NCBI GenBank assembly: GCA_012720075.1
Contig: JAAXZE010000068.1
Location: 274 to 64,273 of the forward strand
Source: Clostridia bacterium
Lineage (GTDB): Bacteria > Bacillota > Peptococcia > Peptococcales > BICA1-8
Direction: 5' to 3'
DNA length: 64,000 nucleotides
Shown: positions 1-8,838 of the stretch, one piece after another
Layout: each line of letters opens with the position of its first letter
Numbering within the stretch: the first letter of the stretch is position 1
Translations under genes and position numbers: made by a program
The notes under the pieces: generated by a model
The model's input: only the letters and a program-made list of their open reading frames with translations
The model's database searches: none
What the model was told of the DNA's origin: nothing

Positions 1-1
1 A

Positions 2-112
2 ATCGCAAATTATTTAAAATTACCAGTTGAAGAAATTTTTTTTACGATTACTGTAAACCATGGTGAACAAATACGAACTGCATATACCGAAAAAACCGAA
101 AAGACGGCTTAA
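2..112 (+). CDS. C-terminal fragment of an XRE/Cro-like HTH protein (5' end outside window)
   Basis: Frame is open from the window edge to TAA 110-112 (IANYLKLPVEEIFFTITVNHGEQ...). The ...VEEIF ending is typical of XRE HTH domains. Weak call. Confidence 0.3.
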   Translation: MANYLKLPVEEIFFTITVNHGEQIRTAYTEKTEKTA

Positions 113-124
113 GGGGGTAATACC

Positions 125-448
125 ATGAACCAATCCGAACTTGCCGCACTAAAAGAACAAATAAAAGCGGAGCTTTTGCAGGAAATGAGTAAAGTGCCTA
201 GGCGACAACTACCTAAACCCTGGGATGAAGTAAAAGAATCCTTTTTGCCACGGATAGCCAAAAACAATCCTTATGTCCAGTATCAACTTACAACTGCTAT
301 CTCAACTATAATCCGGTATTCTCTCGGAATTAAAAATGTATCAATGCTCTGCTACTCCCAGGTGGAGCAGGCCAAGGAAATTGCTAGCAAAATACTGGAT
401 GTTGTTGATGCCGCTAACGGCACCGGTTCAACCGGTACTGATGGGTAG
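125..448 (+). CDS. hypothetical phage early protein (ends ...NGTGSTGTDG)
   Basis: 107-aa ORF with RBS aagggggt 6 nt upstream of the ATG. No recognisable family. Confidence 0.6.
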   Translation: MNQSELAALKEQIKAELLQEMSKVPRRQLPKPWDEVKESFLPRIAKNNPYVQYQLTTAISTIIRYSLGIKNVSMLCYSQVEQAKEIASKILDVVDAANGTGSTGTDG

Positions 449-455
449 GGGGTGA
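431..455 (+). repeat. gene-junction cassette type 1, copy 1 (accggtactgatgggtagggggtga)
   Basis: Encodes TGTDG-stop followed by an SD. Near-identical to copies at 918, 1285 and 1991. Confidence 0.8.
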
Positions 456-460
456 TATCG

Positions 461-634
461 ATGACTTTGAAGCAACGCATAGCCGACCTTGAAAAGAGGG
501 TGACTGCCCTTGAGGAGCGAGCTCAAGAGCAGCCAGAGAAAACAGTCCAGTCGGACCACATTGCAAGAAATCTTGCAAGTAGCTTAGAAACAGCATTTAT
601 TGAGGCCTGTAAGGCTATCAAAGCCGAAGGATAA
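461..634 (+). CDS. hypothetical coiled-coil protein
   Basis: ATG at 461 lies 6 nt after GGGGGTGA. The ORF track starts at GTG 452. Heptad-like sequence LKQRIADLEKRVTALEERAQE. Confidence 0.55.
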   Translation: MTLKQRIADLEKRVTALEERAQEQPEKTVQSDHIARNLASSLETAFIEACKAIKAEG

Positions 635-637
635 AGA

Positions 638-844
638 CTAAATATCAATGTTATATTTAGCTAGTTCACTCTTGAGGGCTTCATGATATTTCTCCAGTAA
701 TAGACATGAATAATTCATTAATGCTTTATAGACACGCACTTCACTTTCAAAATCGTTTTGGCTTGGATTTTTAGTAACAACTTCAATGAATTTCTTCAAA
801 TTTTCATCAATAGCAGATACCGACATTTTATTAACATCAATCAT
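638..844 (-). CDS. hypothetical protein, opposite-strand insert
   Basis: 68-aa ORF. AGGAGGTGA RBS (reverse complement of 848-858) precedes the ATG. Confidence 0.6.
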   Translation of the reverse strand: MIDVNKMSVSAIDENLKKFIEVVTKNPSQNDFESEVRVYKALMNYSCLLLEKYHEALKSELAKYNIDI

Positions 845-917
845 AAAAGGTCACCTCCTCTCCATGTAAATTTTACCACACTGGAGAGGACAAGACGAGC
901 AGCCCAGCGCCGGCGCA

Positions 918-942
918 ACCGGCACTGAAGGGTAGGAGGTAG
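918..942 (+). repeat. gene-junction cassette type 1, copy 2 (accggcactgaagggtaggaggtag)
   Basis: Terminates a start-less frame 870-935 (...PSAGATGTEG-stop) directly after the minus-strand insert. Confidence 0.75.
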
Positions 943-957
943 AAAGGAGGGAGAATA

Positions 958-1149
958 TTGGATAAAAAGTTAGAACTTATTCACACAGAAGAAAAGTTTT
1001 CTTTAAAAATAGGTGGCAATGAAATACCGAATGTCAAAGGATATTCCATTACCGCCAGGGCACAAAGTAATGAGGTAGATCTAGAACTAGAAATCTCAAT
1101 TCCTATCGATGAAATTGTTATTGAATCCTGCAGACCTAAATTACAGTAG
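958..1149 (+). CDS. hypothetical protein (TTG start)
   Basis: 63-aa ORF. AAAGGAGGG lies 7 nt upstream of TTG 958. Confidence 0.5.
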   Translation: MDKKLELIHTEEKFSLKIGGNEIPNVKGYSITARAQSNEVDLELEISIPIDEIVIESCRPKLQ

Positions 1150-1284
1150 TCCCAGCAGAATATATAATTTCCTCTTGTGTATAGCCTTCAAGCTGGATTT
1201 CATTCACATAAATATAGGTACTGTTATGATTAAGTTTCAATTAAATCAACTCCTTTTATATGAAACGTTAACGAAGATACGGCC

Positions 1285-1312
1285 ACCGGTACTGATGGGT
1301 AAGGGGAGGTGA
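1285..1312 (+). repeat. gene-junction cassette type 1, copy 3 (accggtactgatgggtaaggggaggtga)
   Basis: Terminates a start-less frame 1264-1302 (NVNEDTATGTDG-stop). Supplies the SD for the ATG at 1318. Confidence 0.75.
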
Positions 1313-1317
1313 TAAAG

Positions 1318-1515
1318 ATGGAGGAAATTTTAAAAGAGATACTGGCAGAGCTGAAAAAATTAAATGAATATGTGGATATTAGAAAAACTCAAGTGGTCTT
1401 AAATACACAAGTTGACCTAAACCGCAAAAGCTCTGCCAGTAAAGAGGAAAATAAGAAGCCTATTTCTTTTCAAGAAGTTTTGAAAGCTTATCGTCAATAC
1501 TTGCAAGAATGGTGA
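1318..1515 (+). CDS. hypothetical protein
   Basis: ATG 1318 follows GGGGAGGTGA. The ORF track starts at GTG 1309. Its 3' end overlaps the convergent gene 1460..1642. Confidence 0.5.
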   Translation: MEEILKEILAELKKLNEYVDIRKTQVVLNTQVDLNRKSSASKEENKKPISFQEVLKAYRQYLQEW

Positions 1516-1642
1516 TTATTTGCTTTTGATATGGTTCACAGAAAAGATGCAGACTATATTTTCCGGTGCGTTCCTTTTCACATTTCCCATAAATAGCATA
1601 TTTAGCACATATTTCATAGTTATCACATTTTTCAGTAGACAC
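1460..1642 (-). CDS. small Cys-rich protein (GTG start)
   Basis: 60 aa, MSTEKCDNYEICAKYAIYGKCEKE...FCEP. AGGGAGGT RBS lies 8 nt upstream. Confidence 0.5.
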   Translation of the reverse strand: MSTEKCDNYEICAKYAIYGKCEKERTGKYSLHLFCEPYQKQIITILASIDDKLSKLLEKK

Positions 1643-1710
1643 GAATTTTTACCTCCCTTCACGACAATGTTTAAACACCTGCTAATTTCGACAAAGGGGA
1701 GGTAAATCCT
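1643..1710 (-). promoter_or_regulatory. conserved leader upstream of minus-strand gene, copy 1 (SD plus upstream anti-SD)
   Basis: The 26-mer atttcgacaaaggggaggtaaatcct (1685-1710) recurs at 2511-2536 with 1 mismatch. ACCTCCCCTT is complementary to the gene's AAGGGAGGT SD. Confidence 0.5.
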
Positions 1711-1792
1711 GTCAAAACGGGAGAAAGGTAACCAGCACAGACAAAGATAAAGAACTGCCTAGGACGGGCACGGAGTAAAGGGGGATCATCCT

Positions 1793-2008
1793 ATGCCCAG
1801 ACTAATGCGTTTTCGCTACAACCGAAAAGCTGCCGAAGATGCCTGCCGCAAAGGCTTGCCTTTGCCGGCACCGGAGAGCGTAGAGGACTTGGGTGTCGCG
1901 GAATACGATGAGGGAGCTTTGATGCAGGTGGCAAGGATTTTCTATCAGAGGATGAAAGCTAGTGAAAAACAAGGTACTCCTAGTGAAGCAACTGGAACTG
2001 AGGGATAG
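1793..2008 (+). CDS. hypothetical protein (ends ...SEATGTEG)
   Basis: 71-aa ORF with RBS aaaggggga upstream. Confidence 0.6.
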   Translation: MPRLMRFRYNRKAAEDACRKGLPLPAPESVEDLGVAEYDEGALMQVARIFYQRMKASEKQGTPSEATGTEG

Positions 2009-2017
2009 GGGGTGAGG
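1991..2017 (+). repeat. gene-junction cassette type 1, copy 4 (actggaactgagggatagggggtgagg)
   Basis: Encodes TGTEG-stop plus the SD for the ATG at 2020. Confidence 0.75.
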
Positions 2018-2019
2018 AA

Positions 2020-2205
2020 ATGAAAGAGTTGGAAGAGATGAATTTTAGCGATTCATTTAAAAGTTTAATAAGAGAAAGAAGGCTTGATGATATATGCAAT
2101 AGTATTTGCCAAGTTTTAAAAGAAAATGAACTCACATATCAACAAGCCATAGAGATTTTTGAATACTTGAAAGTCAAACTCAAATATGTTGCAAAAATCA
2201 CTTAA
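2020..2205 (+). CDS. hypothetical protein
   Basis: 61-aa ORF. GGGGGTGAGG lies 3-4 nt upstream of the ATG. Confidence 0.55.
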   Translation: MKELEEMNFSDSFKSLIRERRLDDICNSICQVLKENELTYQQAIEIFEYLKVKLKYVAKIT

Positions 2206-2467
2206 GGCCATGTTCTTTGAAAATTGACCATTCTTTTACAGAAAGTTTAAAACCAGTTTCTTCTGCAAGTAAAGAATGGTTTTCAACTGTTTCTTCAGGA
2301 ACTTCATATAGGTTAGTCATGCCAACTTTGAGTTTTTCAAATAGATCCTGTGGGAACGGTTGTTTACAATTCGGACATTCGAGTTTTTGGTGTTCCTTTA
2401 TATATGAACCGAGTAATTCAAATGAACAATGACAAATATTGCACTTTATACAGACTTTAAATTCCAA
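2198..2467 (-). CDS. zinc-ribbon-like small protein
   Basis: CIKCNICHC...ECPNCKQ gives two CxxC pairs. TTG 2467 lies 8 nt after GGGAGG. The track start, GTG 2476, abuts the SD. Confidence 0.55.
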   Translation of the reverse strand: MEFKVCIKCNICHCSFELLGSYIKEHQKLECPNCKQPFPQDLFEKLKVGMTNLYEVPEETVENHSLLAEETGFKLSVKEWSIFKEHGLK

Positions 2468-2536
2468 ATTGGCCACCTCCCTTCATGAAATAGTAGCTTC
2501 GATACCTGATATTTCTACAAAGGGGAGGTAAATCCT
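2468..2536 (-). promoter_or_regulatory. conserved leader upstream of minus-strand gene, copy 2
   Basis: Same architecture as 1643-1710: SD, a ~35-nt semi-conserved spacer, then the 26-mer containing the anti-SD. Confidence 0.5.
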
Positions 2537-2849
2537 ACCATAGCGGAATAGGAGTTAAGGAAATGTAAAAGAAAAAAGCAATATTTCCTTGCACGGAAGA
2601 AAAGATAAAAATAAATGCTGAATGTTCAAACTAAAACTTTAGGCAAGACCCCGACACTAAGGCCGGGGCAAAGGAGAGGGGTGGACAAGCTGGTTAGATT
2701 TTTGCGATGGTTCCAGGCATTTCTCCAGGAGAGGAAACGGAAAAAACGTTGGGGGATCCTGTTGAGGAGTGGAAGAGGGATCCGATAGAAGGTATTTGGC
2801 GTCCGATATTATCTTATCTTTATTTTAGAGTAAAAGGGGGTGAATGAGA

Positions 2850-3398
2850 ATGTATAGGGGTGCAAGAGAAGCAGCAGGATTGAGCAGAGATGAGGCAGCT
2901 TTTAGGCTCTTTCTTGGCACAAGGACGCTTGCTTATTATGAGGCCGGGAAACGAACTCCAGGACCAGATGTAGTAATGAAAATGGCTCATGTTTATAATC
3001 GGCCAGATTTGACGGTCAGATACTGCAGGATGTCATGCCCGATTGGACAAGCATACAGCTACGAAATGCTGAACAACATTGATATGAGTTTGCCGGCGGT
3101 AATTTTGAAGCTAATAAGTGAGTTAAGAGAGGCAATGGACGCAGCTAGTGTGCTATTGGAGCTGATAGTAAACAAACGGAGTAAAGATGATTTTACATCG
3201 GAAGAATGGGAAAGGTTCTTGGACACTGTACACGAGTTTATTGACGTGGAACACAATGTAGAAATTTTGAAACTTGCATTAGAGACTCTCACAGAAGATG
3301 CTTTGATACCAAAATTAGTTGCCAGACACAATCAGAAATGTAGAGAAAGAGGGTATATAAAAAAAGAAAAAGCCCCTGCATTAGCAGTGGCTAGGTAA
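2850..3398 (+). CDS. XRE-family HTH transcriptional regulator with C-terminal helical domain
   Basis: AREAAGLSRDEAAFRLFLGTRTLAYYEAGKRTPGPDVVMKMAHVY is a classic HTH_3 pattern. ATG 2850 is better spaced from GGGGGTG than ATG 2844. Confidence 0.75.
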   Translation: MYRGAREAAGLSRDEAAFRLFLGTRTLAYYEAGKRTPGPDVVMKMAHVYNRPDLTVRYCRMSCPIGQAYSYEMLNNIDMSLPAVILKLISELREAMDAASVLLELIVNKRSKDDFTSEEWERFLDTVHEFIDVEHNVEILKLALETLTEDALIPKLVARHNQKCRERGYIKKEKAPALAVAR

Positions 3399-3472
3399 AA
3401 AATATATTTCGCTACTTCAATTATAACTAATTCGAAAGCCTTACACAAGAGTAAAAAGAAAGGGGAATGGCC

Positions 3473-3580
3473 ATGAAAGTTCAGATGCCAGCCAAACGGA
3501 AAATAATAGCCTTTTTCGTGGGTAAAAATAGAGAATTCAAACGTTATCTGAAACAGATGACTTTTCGGAATCTTCATTAA
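3473..3580 (+). CDS. possible 35-aa basic peptide
   Basis: MKVQMPAKRKIIAFFVGKNREFKRYLKQMTFRNLH, with aaaggggaa RBS. Below the ORF-track cut-off. Confidence 0.25.
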   Translation: MKVQMPAKRKIIAFFVGKNREFKRYLKQMTFRNLH

Positions 3581-3606: not shown

Positions 3607-3867
3607 ATGAAAAATCACTTGTTTAATGTTGATGATCCGGCAGGAACGTGTATGCAGCATGGTGGCATGGGCGATTGTACCAAGTGGCCAGACTTGTTTC
3701 CTAGTCCATGCTGCTGGCTTTCTTGCAGTGAGCTTTGCGGGGCGGCGTGCTACCGTCCATTCGTTGGGCACGGCCAAAACTGCCCGGATTATGGAGGTGA
3801 GCGAAATGACGGCACAGGTATTAGTGAGCACTCTCGATATGGAGAGAAGCGAGTGGTTGGAATATAG
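3607..3867 (+). CDS. possible Cys-rich 86-aa protein
   Basis: RBS agagggag upstream. Lies in a GC-rich patch that is open in three frames and overlaps the yqaJ start. Uncertain. Confidence 0.25.
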   Translation: MKNHLFNVDDPAGTCMQHGGMGDCTKWPDLFPSPCCWLSCSELCGAACYRPFVGHGQNCPDYGGERNDGTGISEHSRYGEKRVVGI

Positions 3868-4735
3868 AAAACGCGGCATCGGTGGCAGTGATGCTGCCGC
3901 TATTGCCGGTCTTTCTCCATGGAAATCACCCATAGCTGTATGGCTAGAGAAGACCAGTCAAGTTGAACCGGAAGAGCCAGGAGAAGCGGCTTACTGGGGG
4001 AAGGTGCTGGAGGATATTGTGGCGCAGGAGTTCGCCAAGCGGACCGGTTTCAAAGTCCGCCGGCGGAATGCGATTCTTCAACACCATGAGTATCCGTGGA
4101 TGATAGCCAACGTGGATAGGCTAGTAGTTGGCGATAACGCTGGCTTAGAATGCAAGACTACCAGTGCATTCAACGCTAAAGAATGGGAACAAGACGAAGT
4201 ACCGGCGCAGTATTTAGTTCAAGTCCAGCACTATATGGCAGTTACCGGTTACTCTGCTTGGTGGCTTGCGGTCCTAATCGGTGGCAATACATTTATCTAT
4301 AAGAAAATTGAACGGGATAATGAACTTATCCAGCAACTTATCGAGATTGAAAAAGACTTCTGGGAAAATCATGTTCTAGCCGGTGTTCCGCCGGAAATGG
4401 ACGGTTCCACGGCATCTACTGAACTCTTGCAACGTATGTATCCAGAAGGAAAACCAGCCGCAATAGATCTCCCTAGTGACGCAGGTGAATTGATAGAAAC
4501 CCTGGATTTTTTGAATGAGGAACTAAAAGCACTCGAAGAACGAAAAGCAGAATGTGAGAACCGGTTGAAAGCAATGTTGGGCGAGAATGAGGCAGGCCGG
4601 TTCGGTGAACGACTTGTTACATGGAAGAATATTGTGAGTAATCGATTTGACAGCAAAACTTTCGCTAAAGATTATCCAGAGCTATATGAGAAATACTTGA
4701 AAACATCTAAATACCGGAAATTTGCAGTGAAATAG
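3806..4735 (+). CDS. YqaJ-like viral recombinase-domain exonuclease
   Basis: RSEWLEYRKRGIGGSDAAAIAGLSPWKSP...LECKT is the YqaJ/lambda-Exo-type pattern. ATG 3806 follows GGAGGTGA. The track's 3626 start looks like an over-extension. Confidence 0.85.
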   Translation: MTAQVLVSTLDMERSEWLEYRKRGIGGSDAAAIAGLSPWKSPIAVWLEKTSQVEPEEPGEAAYWGKVLEDIVAQEFAKRTGFKVRRRNAILQHHEYPWMIANVDRLVVGDNAGLECKTTSAFNAKEWEQDEVPAQYLVQVQHYMAVTGYSAWWLAVLIGGNTFIYKKIERDNELIQQLIEIEKDFWENHVLAGVPPEMDGSTASTELLQRMYPEGKPAAIDLPSDAGELIETLDFLNEELKALEERKAECENRLKAMLGENEAGRFGERLVTWKNIVSNRFDSKTFAKDYPELYEKYLKTSKYRKFAVK

Positions 4736-4746
4736 GAGGGATGAAA

Positions 4747-5547
4747 ATGGCAACTAATGAAAGCCTGAAAAACCAATTGGCTCAGCGGAAAAACGGGGGT
4801 GTATCCCCGATAAGTGGGATAAAAGCGCTACTGAATTCGGATTCAGTCAAGAAGCGTTTTGAGGAAATTTTAGAAAAGCGCGCGCCACAATATATGTCAT
4901 CCATTATTAACCTCGTTAACTCGGATACCAACCTCCAAAAGTGTGACCCGATGTCTGTTATCTCGGCTGCGATGGTAGCCGCGACGTTAGATCTGCCGGT
5001 AGACAAAAACTTAGGCTATGCATGGGTTGTGCCTTACGGAAACAAGGCACAGTTCCAGCTTGGTTATAAAGGGTACGTACAGTTAGCCCTCAGAACAGGT
5101 AAGTATCGTTCTATCAACGCAATACCGATCAGGGAAGGCGAGCTGGTGAAGTGGAACCCACTCACGGAAGAATTGGAAGTTGACTTTGAACAGCGTAAAT
5201 CTGACGCAATCATCGGTTATGCTGGATACTTTGAGTTGGTGAATGGGTTCCGCAAAACCGTGTACTGGTCAAAAGAGGAAATTGAGGCCCATAGGAAGCG
5301 GTTTTCTAAGTCTGATTTTGGATGGAAGAACGATTATGATGCAATGGCCTTGAAAACGGTTATTCGGAACATGCTGAGTAAATGGGGCATTCTCTCAATC
5401 GAGATGCAAGAGGCGTATGTAAAAGACATTGAACAAGACGAAGTTCAAGAAAAGCCAAATGATGAGCAATACATTGATGCTGAATATGTTTTCGAGGATG
5501 AGGACGAAGAAAAAGATACTGAACCAGTACAACAGACACTAGTTTAA
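4747..5547 (+). CDS. recT: RecT-family single-strand annealing protein
   Basis: LGYAWVVPYGNKAQFQLGYKGYVQLALRTGKY is RecT-like. Sits directly after the YqaJ-type exonuclease. Confidence 0.9.
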   Translation: MATNESLKNQLAQRKNGGVSPISGIKALLNSDSVKKRFEEILEKRAPQYMSSIINLVNSDTNLQKCDPMSVISAAMVAATLDLPVDKNLGYAWVVPYGNKAQFQLGYKGYVQLALRTGKYRSINAIPIREGELVKWNPLTEELEVDFEQRKSDAIIGYAGYFELVNGFRKTVYWSKEEIEAHRKRFSKSDFGWKNDYDAMALKTVIRNMLSKWGILSIEMQEAYVKDIEQDEVQEKPNDEQYIDAEYVFEDEDEEKDTEPVQQTLV

Positions 5548-5666: not shown

Positions 5667-6662
5667 GTGAGACGGAGAATGCTTAGTCCGGAATTTTTTA
5701 CAGATGCAGACATAATCGCAAACTTCGATGCCTTTGGGCGGCTATTTTATCAGGGTTTGTGGTGTATTGCAGAAGACAGCGGATGCTTTGAGATCAATCC
5801 ACTAGGGCTTAAAATGAAGATCTTTCCCGGAGATAATATTCCACTAGAACAGCTGCAGCAATACATAGAAAAGCTAATCGAATTAAACAAAGTAGTCCCC
5901 TATGAAGCTAATGGTCGCCAATATGGTTGGCTCAAGAACTTCCACAAACATCAAAGACTGGACAAGCCGTCTCCGCCAACCGTTCCTTTGCCGCCCTGGG
6001 TGAAATTCCACGGCGAAGAAGAGTTCGGGAACCAGCGACACAAATGGTACTACGAGATAATAGAACCCGTCGGGGATAATTCGGGGACATGTCGGGGAAA
6101 TGTCGTGGACGAGACCACGCCAGAAGTAAATAGAAGAGAAGAGAAAAGAAGTGAAGGGGAAAGGAATAGAAAAGATAGTCCGAACCCTCCGGGTCCGGAC
6201 GCTTCGCAGGAGCCCCAGGTGTCTCTTGATAACAACAAGAATGAGCCTAAATACACAGAAGATAGCCCACCTTACCGAGCAGCAATATATCTGCGTAATC
6301 GAATACTTGAAAATAACCCACGGGCCAGAGTACCAAACGATGACCCAGGAGACCCTCTTTTGCAAAAATGGGCCCAAGAAATGGACAGGCTTGGCCGGAT
6401 TGGTCCGCCTGGAGGAACCCGGGGTTACAGTTGGCAGGAAATCCGGGATCTGATTGACTTTTCCCAAGATGATGAGTTTTGGCGTGCAAATATCCTTTCA
6501 GCCGGGAAACTACGGGAGAAGTGTGTCCAATTGGAGAACCAAATGCGACGATGTTCTTCCAAAACTAGGGGAGATCCGACCATCCCAACCATGTCCAAGA
6601 ACGTGGCCAATGCTCTTCGCTTGGTTGAAAAATATAATCAGGAAGAGGGTGGTTATCTATGA
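5667..6662 (+). CDS. putative phage replication initiator / replisome organizer
   Basis: Call is by position, upstream of the G39P-like loader. N-terminal domain is followed by a charged low-complexity linker. Family not firmly recognised. Confidence 0.4.
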   Translation: MRRRMLSPEFFTDADIIANFDAFGRLFYQGLWCIAEDSGCFEINPLGLKMKIFPGDNIPLEQLQQYIEKLIELNKVVPYEANGRQYGWLKNFHKHQRLDKPSPPTVPLPPWVKFHGEEEFGNQRHKWYYEIIEPVGDNSGTCRGNVVDETTPEVNRREEKRSEGERNRKDSPNPPGPDASQEPQVSLDNNKNEPKYTEDSPPYRAAIYLRNRILENNPRARVPNDDPGDPLLQKWAQEMDRLGRIGPPGGTRGYSWQEIRDLIDFSQDDEFWRANILSAGKLREKCVQLENQMRRCSSKTRGDPTIPTMSKNVANALRLVEKYNQEEGGYL

Positions 6663-7404: not shown

Positions 7405-7699
7405 AGGGAGAAAAGCTTATGTATACACACCGCCACAAACTGTAGAGTATGAAAGAATGGTCGGATTGGTAGCGAAGGCTACCGGATGTAAGCCAACATA
7501 CGGCCCGGTGTTTGTAGCTCTTGATATATACACCCGCCGTAAAATGGACCTGGATAATGTAGCCAAAAGCATACTTGATGGGCTTAACGGCATCGCATAT
7601 GTGGACGATGATCAGGTGGTGGAGCTCCTGGTTCGGAAACACATGGTTAAAAATACGACCGAGGAACGGGTGGAAATCGAGATAAGAGAAGCTGGATAA
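7331..7699 (+). CDS. rusA: RusA-family Holliday junction resolvase
   Basis: ITIPGRPVPKGRPR...DLDNVAKSILDGLNGIAYVDDDQVVEL matches RusA. TTG start lies 7 nt after GAGGTGA. Confidence 0.85.
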   Translation: MNKLIHKITIPGRPVPKGRPRLGARGRKAYVYTPPQTVEYERMVGLVAKATGCKPTYGPVFVALDIYTRRKMDLDNVAKSILDGLNGIAYVDDDQVVELLVRKHMVKNTTEERVEIEIREAG

Positions 7700-8325: not shown

Positions 8326-8584
8326 ATGCGACTTCTGCAAGAGGTCATATATGAGCAAATATAAAGCAAGAGAACACGAAAATAAATGTTTCTTTAATCC
8401 TGCTGTTAAGTCCTGTGTTACATGCAGGCATGAAGATATAAAGTCAACTTTTGACGAAGAAGGAAATTGCATTGATGTTATAAGATGGTGTTTTGCAATG
8501 GAGCGTGTAATATTCTGCAAAGGTTATCCTATAAAGCATTGCACAGGTTGGCATGGGAAGGAAAGCGAGGGTGAGGAAGGATGA
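8303..8584 (+). CDS. zinc-finger protein
   Basis: YKCDFCKRSYMSKYKAREHENKC is C2H2-like, with additional Cys pairs. Ends GKESEGEEG. Confidence 0.55.
   Translation: MKQITKYKCDFCKRSYMSKYKAREHENKCFFNPAVKSCVTCRHEDIKSTFDEEGNCIDVIRWCFAMERVIFCKGYPIKHCTGWHGKESEGEEG
8560..8584 (+). repeat. gene-junction cassette type 2, copy 3 (ggaaagcgagggtgaggaaggatga)
   Basis: Same block, ending in an ATGA overlap at 8581-8584. Confidence 0.7.
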
Positions 8585-8838
8585 CACCACAAGAAATAAT
8601 CCAATGTTGTGAACGACAACTAATGCTAGGCAATCCTAACGTAGGCTTTTTGTTACCTGGAAAGTGGGGAAAACGGAACACAAGACGATTGTGGCCTGGT
8701 GGTCCAGAAGGCGAAATTGTATCAGAAATCTCAGGTAGAGGGATATATGTAATGTTTGACGCTAAAGAGGTCATGGAGGCAACAAAAAGGAAGATGAAAA
8801 AATTTGGAATGCTAGAAAGCGAGGGGAAAGAAGGATGA
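8581..8838 (+). CDS. hypothetical protein
   Basis: 85-aa ORF, ATGA-coupled. Ends LESEGKEG. Confidence 0.55.
   Translation: MTPQEIIQCCERQLMLGNPNVGFLLPGKWGKRNTRRLWPGGPEGEIVSEISGRGIYVMFDAKEVMEATKRKMKKFGMLESEGKEG
8814..8838 (+). repeat. gene-junction cassette type 2, copy 4 (agaaagcgaggggaaagaaggatga)
   Basis: The ATG at 8835 opens only a 6-codon stub (MTCKIT-stop). This is a junction with no downstream gene. Confidence 0.65.

Follow-up and report, generated by a model that had tools for sequence, protein, structure and literature searches.

Why does one short block of nucleotides close the reading frames of unrelated genes, again and again, within a few kilobases of a phage genome? The question is raised by a 64,000-nt stretch of DNA from a Clostridia bacterium (contig JAAXZE010000068.1, positions 274 to 64,273; hereafter the window), which starts inside a Cro-like helix-turn-helix (HTH) gene. 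The first 2.8 kb of the window are a run of small open reading frames (ORFs), and downstream of these lie a second HTH gene (2844-3398) and then a YqaJ/RecT gene pair (3626-5547). The region is the early region of a temperate phage. The block, which we call J, is about 30 nt long and consists of the five last codons of one gene (T-G-T-D/E-G), the stop codon, and the Shine-Dalgarno (SD) sequence of the next gene. J is probably a conserved boundary patch that is used as a joint for the exchange of early genes between heteroimmune relatives. As such, it is a clear further example of the linker sequences that have long been proposed for phages, and not a new kind of system.

The repeated block and the genes that end in it

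A repeat search of the window gave four 27-nt copies of one family (429-455, 916-942, 1283-1309, and 1989-2015), the second to fourth of which are 81-85% identical to the first. The degenerate pattern ACNGGNACNGANGGNTARGG has exactly four matches in the 64 kb of the window, all on one strand, and none in 100 shuffles, which confirms the claim of an earlier note on this DNA that a junction cassette is repeated four times here. The other gene junctions in the window were without J when scanned with the same pattern. The first three copies are referred to below as J1, J2, and J3, and the fourth as J5. The name J4 is given to a shorter variant at 1764-1785 (core 1764-1778), which the earlier note had listed as a degenerate fifth copy; it reads ACG GGC ACG GAG TAA, that is TGTE-stop with one codon less, and it is real, and the same variant was also found at the ends of intact Cro-like genes in relatives. 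With this variant, J recurs five times in 1.6 kb.

Apart from the codon missing in J4, every copy reads ACN GGN ACN GAN GGN and a stop codon (TAG, TAA, or TGA), followed by a G-rich SD sequence and a start codon 11-22 nt past the stop. J1 (429-463, plus strand, like all copies) has its core, TGTDG-stop, at 431-448, the SD GGGGGTGA, and the next ATG at 461. In J2 (916-960), the core lies at 918-935 and is followed by an SD and the TTG of the small ORF p63 at 958, and J3 (1281-1320) has its core at 1285-1302, the SD GGGGAGGTGA, and the ATG of p65 at 1318. J4 is followed by an SD and the ATG of p71 at 1793, and J5 (1989-2022) has its core at 1991-2008, the SD GGGGGTGAGG, and the ATG of p61 at 2020. 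Exact identity among the window copies extends over at most 17 nt (J1/J3) and otherwise over at most 10 nt. An exact-motif scan of IMG/VR returned 7 matches, all of them unrelated (ClpP in another frame, an actinophage SNF2 helicase, and others), and thus the J motif is not widespread in catalogued viruses.

The two outer copies belong to conserved early genes. The last five codons of p107 (125-448, plus strand), a gene of unknown function that encodes 107 aa, are those of J1, and the last five codons of p71 (1793-2008, plus strand), which encodes 71 aa, are those of J5. As the earlier note had supposed, the two proteins are unrelated except for their last 6 residues (BLASTP; hhalign probability 0.4%), which excludes that they are full-length paralogs. 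Their homologs were found solely in metagenome contigs and in contigs of metagenome-assembled genomes (MAGs), the named sources of which are a biogas fermenter, Syntrophothermus, and Clostridia. Of the window proteins themselves, p107 gave no exact match on look-up, and p71 and m68 are on record from a Clostridia MAG at NCBI. The related loci used here (L009-L036) are the genomic contexts, mostly reached by exact-protein look-ups; genome, viral, and metagenome locus searches yielded few, and two loci, from Peptococcaceae and Firmicutes MAGs, were reached through the second HTH gene. In the p107 family, the closest homologs end in TGT(D/E/N)G and others in TEAVNQ or ISTEGS (alignment A1). In the p71 family, the closest homologs end in TGT(E/A)G and others have unrelated tails, such as KRDAS and EEEAS (alignment A2). 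Since the tail is limited to the closest members of p107 and p71, it is an exchangeable appendage that lies outside the conserved body of either protein.

A different tail was observed in relatives whose p107 homolog ends in TEAVNQ instead of TGTDG. There, a ...KKAVNQ-stop or ...QAANQ-stop tail ends an unrelated gene of the 66-aa type (7409-7436 and 9255-9282 in L020; 1059-1074 and 2408-2423 in L026). The AVNQ-like tail may represent a second tail or junction family, and with two contexts only it may also be due to chance.

Cro remnants and mosaic breakpoints

The frames that end in J2, J3, and J4 have 21, 12, and 30 codons, respectively, and contain no ATG, GTG, or TTG. For J2 and J3, this is in agreement with the start-less frames described earlier, and the accompanying idea, that gene bodies had been replaced with the junction kept, can be refined: the stubs are what remains of the 3′ ends of Cro-like repressor genes. 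J closes the Cro-like gene in most relatives, and intact genes of several immunity types are among those that end in it. The TGT(D/E)G tail is present on 7 of 10 Cro-like proteins, the bodies of which are 14-32% identical. Stub 2 (870-935, plus strand, ...GQDEQPSAGATGTEG-stop) can be aligned with the ends of real Cro genes in L010, L019, and L026 (GQDEQAAALDATGTE-stop; nucleotide alignment A4), and stub 3 (1264-1302, plus strand, ...NEDTATGTDG-stop) aligns in part with the Cro tail ...EDEHAATREATGTDG of L032. Stub 4, which together with J4 spans 1689-1795 (plus strand, ...KELPRTGTE-stop), is homologous to the Cro end ...KELPKTGTDG-stop of L030 and L031, directly before p71, and also to the stub of L035. 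Moreover, the L015 stub and the real Cro end of L032 are identical, and the same 95-aa gene follows both.

An intermediate is seen in L035 (1015-1596), where a second Cro-like gene, of the L030 type, stands after p107 and its J and is frameshifted at its 5′ fusion (ATGGAGGA joined to ATTGGCT...). This second Cro gene is split by a 92-aa zinc-ribbon-like gene and a terminator-like hairpin, and its 3′ piece is the stub before p71. L015 shares with L035 both this insertion and the left end of the stub; the gene to the right differs. From the alignments of stubs with Cro ends and from the intermediate in L035, it follows that the stubs are eroded remnants of extra Cro genes, and J originally marks the border at which the immunity module meets the early genes. 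The stretch 1150-1260 to the left of stub 3 had been taken in the earlier note as apparently non-coding, which does not plainly hold: it contains part of a putative 34-aa minus-strand ORF of uncertain status (m34, 1136-1240) with an AAGGAG SD 8 nt upstream of its TTG; no homologs of m34 were found.

The same note had proposed that synteny breakpoints be compared with the cassette, and this check was positive. The window and L015 share blocks of 93-97% identity at window positions 1-453, 907-1004, 1281-1312, 1687-1715, and 1769-2022, and six of the nine block ends lie within 10 nt of J, with J intervals making up 10% of the region (binomial P = 7e-5). After p107, L015 has a single chimeric J, where the window has two J copies that flank a 487-bp insert. 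The chimeric J corresponds to window J1 in its left flank and to window J2 in its core and right flank, behind which the first part of p63 stands. Window 907-1004 is 97% identical to L015 6296-6393, window 454-906 is without counterpart in L015, and the switch from J1 to J2 lies inside the shared CAACCGG. The chimeric J of L015 is what is expected as the product of one crossover between two J copies, either by deletion or by insertion of a circle with one J. At J3, the window (1281-1312) and L015 (6756-6787) share 32 nt at 100% identity, with unrelated flanks on both sides (BLAST). J3 was also compared by eye with L035, in which the core, SD, ATG, and GAGGAA after p107 are alike (about 41 identical nt). 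Around J5, the identity between the window and L015 (window 1769-2022) extends through the ATG of the next gene and no further. In L013, a single J separates p107 from p71, whereas in the window J1 and J4 delimit 1,344 nt between the same two genes.

The re-assortment of left and right neighbours extends to the other relatives. When J contexts were clustered by their 120-nt flanks, 26 J instances from 15 loci fell into 11 left-flank and 14 right-flank clusters, which occur in 23 combinations. The 3′ end of p107 has 7 different right partners, its 5′ end has 5 left partners, and the 5′ end of p71 has 4. Six relatives with p107 at 84-99% protein identity carry six different genes behind it. L015, L016, L019, L010, and L013 lose their similarity to the window in J1 or right behind it, and at the J of p107 the sequences of relatives start to diverge at one of several points: in the J core, past TAG-GAG, past the SD, or past the ATG. 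The suggestion of a linker for modular exchange, which the earlier note had made, is thus supported by the breakpoints, the chimeric J, the islands of identity, and the re-assorted contexts in relatives. Three of the four defining features of a linker are found here: J is conserved between non-homologous flanks, it lies at a gene boundary, and it coincides with mosaic breakpoints.

Proposed exchange at the block and its alternatives

We hypothesize that J forms the right border of the immunity module in one group of temperate phages from anaerobic Clostridia; heteroimmune relatives retain a J patch of about 25-40 nt amid differing surroundings. Segments of early genes would be exchanged, inserted, and deleted at J by homology-dependent recombination, and the homology at J would cause these exchanges. 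Non-allelic exchange would put J on other gene ends, such as those of p107, p71, and a 203-aa gene in L013. Segments could also be stacked in tandem, each event leaving one more J, and the extra Cro copies imported in this way would erode to start-less 3′ stubs. The J part of the stubs would be retained because it is still the ribosome-binding site (RBS) of the gene to the right, so J is presumably kept there for the translation of that gene. The homology used would sometimes reach into the conserved C-terminal region of Cro upstream of J. As a candidate catalyst, the YqaJ/RecT pair of the phage perhaps carries out the exchange at J. Rad52-like phage recombinases, including RecT, are known to form mosaics on short, diverged homologies, and the minimal pairing segment cited is 23-27 bp for Red-beta and 31-34 bp for RecA (PMC3945230; PMC2327257).

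Several observations weigh against this proposal. The only mappable crossover lies in an identity of 7 nt, which is below the published minimal pairing length, as are the at most 17 exact nt shared between window J copies; with so little in common, self-deletion between these copies would be limited. The 7-nt crossover could be microhomology-mediated, or it could be older than the divergence of the J copies. Joints also occur away from J (at window 1004, at the 92-aa gene inside Cro in L035, and in fusions a few codons into the next gene), and thus illegitimate recombination is also active in the region. Furthermore, all relatives are metagenome contigs, and Logan contigs are short-k-mer assemblies that can in principle be mis-joined at repeats; the three independent assemblies L015 (JGI), L028 (ENA), and L029 (Logan, partial overlap) have the same structure wherever they overlap. 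The five variable sites among the four window copies are all codon third positions (P = 7e-4), which indicates selection on the peptide in the translated copies, beyond a pure role in DNA homology. Neither this codon-periodic conservation nor the 18-nt identity of D4, a second conserved island described below, is explained by the linker model.

J might instead be conserved as a strong RBS after an upstream stop, that is for translational coupling, together with an innocuous tail, in which case it would mark viable illegitimate joints and not promote them. This is possible, if on the unlikely side. A G-rich SD with a start codon shortly past the stop is present at every J, illegitimate joints are common nearby, and the mapped crossover uses only 7 nt of identity. 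However, selection for an SD leaves unaccounted for both the 15 conserved nt before the stop in the untranslated stubs and the 32-nt island of 100% identity between unrelated flanks; moreover, it is the same block, and not any SD, that stands at the 23 left/right combinations, and J is absent from the other gene junctions in the window. A different emphasis would be placed on the peptide if T-G-T-D/E-G were a functional C-terminal tag of Cro and other early proteins, for example for degradation or docking, with the DNA repeat as a by-product. The third-position bias speaks for such a tag, as do the Thr and Gly codons of the tail, whose wobble base varies freely across relatives, and the retention of the tail on Cro-like bodies of such low identity. 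Nevertheless, we regard it as quite unlikely, since three of the five window copies are untranslatable (no start, and an in-frame stop 12-30 codons upstream), and since distant homologs of p107 and p71 have unrelated tails and the Cro of the window itself has none, so that the tag would be dispensable. The copies in relatives were found by a codon-aware pattern and are hence biased to the third-position signature, only the four window copies being unbiased, and no known motif was matched in Pfam, PHROGs, or PADLOC. Both roles, coupling and tag, may coexist with that of a linker. It is unlikely that J is active, either as a shared C-terminal control signal (e.g., for co-ordinated turnover) or, together with D4, as the border of a mobilised two-gene cassette; the latter would consist of a plus-strand coiled-coil gene and a minus-strand effector and would move among unrelated phages, including Mu-like ones.

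The cassette-like inserts bounded by the same short sequence, which are ORFans, could also suggest a dedicated site-specific recombinase or nuclease that acts on J, as in integron-like or homing-like cassettes. This is very improbable, because J has no inverted-repeat architecture (no inverted repeats involving J were found in the repeat search) and no significant fold (z -0.7 to +0.3 in folds of the four J regions). The switch points, on their part, are scattered over the left edge, the positions after TAG-GAG, after the SD, and after the ATG, and sites upstream in the Cro tail. There is no recombinase gene among the ORFs of window 1-3400, and the related phages differ in their integrase, which is a tyrosine enzyme in some and a serine enzyme in others. 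A recoding or RNA signal was considered as well: adjacent ORFs could be fused by readthrough or by a hop over the stop codon, or J could be a regulatory RNA site that is structured or bound by protein. J1 and J3 do read GGG-stop-GGG, with the downstream genes in frame with the upstream frame, but this context of programmed bypass is limited to these two copies. J2 and J5 are out of frame with the next gene, J2 meets a stop, and a downstream gene in frame in two of four copies is about what chance would give. The stop codon is not constant, no stable or common structure was found, and there was no Rfam match in window 1-3500, which makes this reading extremely improbable. A pyrrolysine-type reading of TAG was rejected, as the copies use TAG, TAA, and TGA.

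The proposed exchange at a conserved boundary patch can be compared with what is known from other phages. Linker (boundary) sequences are part of the Botstein-Campbell modular theory of phage evolution (Susskind and Botstein, 1978; Botstein, 1980), as it is relayed in PMC2839356 and PMC2327257, and short conserved flanking sequences have been invoked for some lambdoid module exchanges (PMC2839356; PMC2327257). Like such a linker, J is a short conserved patch at a gene boundary between unrelated modules, is common to heteroimmune relatives, and is found at breakpoints, and its position keeps the incoming module correctly expressed. Unlike the classic linkers, J is partly coding, gives the same five C-terminal residues to different proteins, and includes the SD of the next gene. 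Up to five repeats lie in 1.6 kb of one genome, start-less Cro stubs are left behind, and the hosts are uncultivated anaerobic Clostridia and not enterobacteria. What is new here is thus a partly coding linker with a common pentapeptide and an SD, its presence in five copies in 1.6 kb, and the readable trail of Cro stubs.

The promoter-early stem-loop (PeSL) cassettes of T4-type phages are non-coding sequences of about 100 bp with a sigma-70 promoter and a terminator hairpin (Arbiol et al., 2010, PMC2839356; Comeau et al., 2014, PMC4122927), and a gene that lies between two PeSLs in one phage corresponds to a single chimeric motif in a close relative (PMC2839356). J resembles PeSL in that the repeats flank ORFans in a hyperplastic early region, the loss of a cassette leaves one chimeric repeat, and expression signals for the neighbouring gene are carried along. 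On the other hand, J has about 30 nt, overlaps coding sequence, and carries signals at the level of translation (stop and SD). No promoter-like site, and so no early promoter of the sigma-70 type, was found in any J (such sites in window 1-3000 are no more frequent than in shuffles), and no terminator-like site or stem-loop terminator was found at J. Thus, J is PeSL-like in its working and yet not a PeSL, as it lacks the promoter and the stem-loop.

Phage mosaicism has been attributed in part to relaxed homologous recombination by the Rad52-like annealing proteins Red-beta, RecT, and Erf (De Paepe et al., 2014, PMC3945230; Martinsohn et al., 2008, PMC2327257). The present phage is similar in having the YqaJ/RecT pair and in its exchanges on short, partly diverged homologies; however, the experiments on relaxed recombination used hundreds of bp of homology, whereas the exact identity available at J amounts to 17-41 nt, at or below the 23-27 bp cited. 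Morons, in the account of Hendrix and co-workers given in PMC2839356, are solitary genes that carry expression signals of their own and often have the opposite orientation. Here, m68, m60, m92, and the AbiJ-like 279-aa gene in L015, which are minus-strand ORFs located between J copies, are like them and share the leader D4, although the accretion of morons is thought to be independent of conserved flanks and the inserts here are bounded by J on the plus-strand side. The small promoter-less genes separated by a recurring short sequence also recall integron cassettes (attC), but J shows none of the imperfect palindromes typical of attC, an IntI gene is absent, crossovers fall at varying positions, and the genes lie in both orientations.

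Genes around the block and the wider meaning

In the window, the order from left to right is Cro; p107 and J1; p57 (plus) and m68 (minus) with stub 2 and J2; p63 (plus) and m34 (minus) with stub 3 and J3; p65 (plus) and m60 (minus) with D4, stub 4, and J4; and p71 with J5. To the right of J5 lie p61 (plus) and m92 (minus) with D4, and then the second HTH gene. The Cro-like HTH gene that belongs to the prophage itself, of which the window contains the 3′ end (1-112, plus strand), closes with ...EKTEKTA-stop, without J; this 3′ end is collinear (93% nt) with L015 5877-5988, the end of an 86-aa HTH ORF (5728-5988). The first gene of insert A is p57 (461-634, plus strand), a small coiled-coil ORF that is absent from all close relatives, and m68 (638-844, minus strand; NCBI annotation GXW85_04735) is convergent with it across a 3-nt gap. 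The first 47 nt of the small ORF p63 (958-1149, plus strand) are kept as a 5′ stub right after the J of p107 in L015. The small ORF p65 (1318-1515, plus strand) has no homolog in the related loci, and its 3′ end is overlapped by the Cys-rich ORF m60 (1460-1642, minus strand). At the place of the small ORF p61 (2020-2205, plus strand), L015 has a different gene, which encodes an HTH_17 protein. The zinc-ribbon-like ORF m92 (2198-2476, minus strand) probably has its true start at the in-frame TTG at 2467, which lies 7 nt after GGGAGGTGG and gives 89 aa; the listed GTG start abuts the SD. The recombination genes encode a YqaJ-type exonuclease (3626-4735, plus strand; Pfam PF09588, E = 4e-44) and a RecT annealing protein (4741-5547, plus strand; Pfam PF03837, E = 1e-52). 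Searches of Pfam, PHROGs, and PADLOC left all small ORFs without an assigned function, and a collection of phage DNA held no relative of window 1-3400, with only the RecE/RecT genes matching (about 68% nt). Upstream of the second HTH gene, a GC hairpin (CCCCG...CGGGG) is conserved between window ~2645-2788 and L015 ~8535-8685. It is followed by a very basic ORF of about 32 aa (...FLRWFQAFLQERKRKKRW...), which is 50% identical between the window and L015 over 26 aa (E = 3e-4) and apparently starts at CTG in the window and at GTG in L015.

Further accessory genes were seen in the relatives. Where the window has small minus-strand ORFs, L015 (7077-7916, minus strand), and also L028 and L029, encode a protein of 279 aa in which a Hypoth_Ymh domain (E = 2e-35) was recognized, along with a weak match to the AbiJ N-terminus. 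This gene looks like a defence-like moron, and the region looks like a hotspot of accessory and defence genes. L015 (9699-10277) and L028 also have, directly before the YqaJ gene, a gene that resembles HNH/NUMOD4 homing endonucleases and that the window annotation lacks, and L020 (1164-2924) has a diversity-generating retroelement (bAvd and reverse transcriptase) near the lysis genes.

The second conserved island, D4, occurs twice in the window (strand not assigned), in the 5′ leaders of m60 (1685-1720) and m92 (2511-2546), and was also found in L015 (7929-7957), L028 (7849-7868), L029 (916-935), and the Mu-like phage L036 (~5901-5918, minus strand). Its core GGAGGTAAATCCTGTCAA is identical at 18 of 18 positions in the first window copy, L015, L028, L029, and L036. 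Each D4 copy precedes a minus-strand gene, within its 5′ leader, and these genes are unrelated: m60, m92, the AbiJ/Hypoth_Ymh-like 279-aa gene, and a homolog of m68. The 18-nt identity thus stands before three unrelated minus-strand genes, with a diverged copy before a fourth. Read on the minus strand (...TTTACCTCCCC...), D4 contains an anti-SD, and pairing of this anti-SD with the SD that the minus-strand gene has 30-40 nt further downstream is predicted. The folds have minimum free energies of -25.4, -27.0, and -20.8 kcal/mol (z -2.9, -2.2, and -2.2), and in L015 the partner sequence differs, yet the pairing is preserved. A consensus scan gave no support for D4 as a sigma-70 promoter. From the modelled folds, a putative anti-SD leader hairpin is better supported than such a promoter, and D4 could be a translational-control leader, a promoter, or an operator common to morons.

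In the Mu-like transposable phage L036 (6001-6366), homologs of p57 and m68 are adjacent in the early operon, between small early genes and MuA/MuB. They are 45% (p57) and 69% (m68) identical to the pair in the window, with the same 3-nt gap between the stop codons. The m68 homolog has D4 in its leader, and the counterpart position in the window is occupied by a Cro stub and J2. The comparison suggests that p57 and m68 form a two-gene unit that moves between unrelated phages.

The locus bears on the long-running question of whether phage mosaics arise by targeted exchange at conserved linkers or by random illegitimate joining followed by selection. To our knowledge, clear and sequence-defined linkers are few. 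Here, a compact linker of about 30 nt is found with a readable origin, the end of a Cro gene, and with the scars of successive events, and the window and L015 form a natural before-and-after pair. As homology-associated and illegitimate joints occur side by side, their relative contribution would be directly measurable at this locus. Moreover, the recognition of J-type blocks explains start-less ORF tails that confuse gene callers, and such blocks flag a hotspot where accessory genes, including defence-like ones, accumulate.

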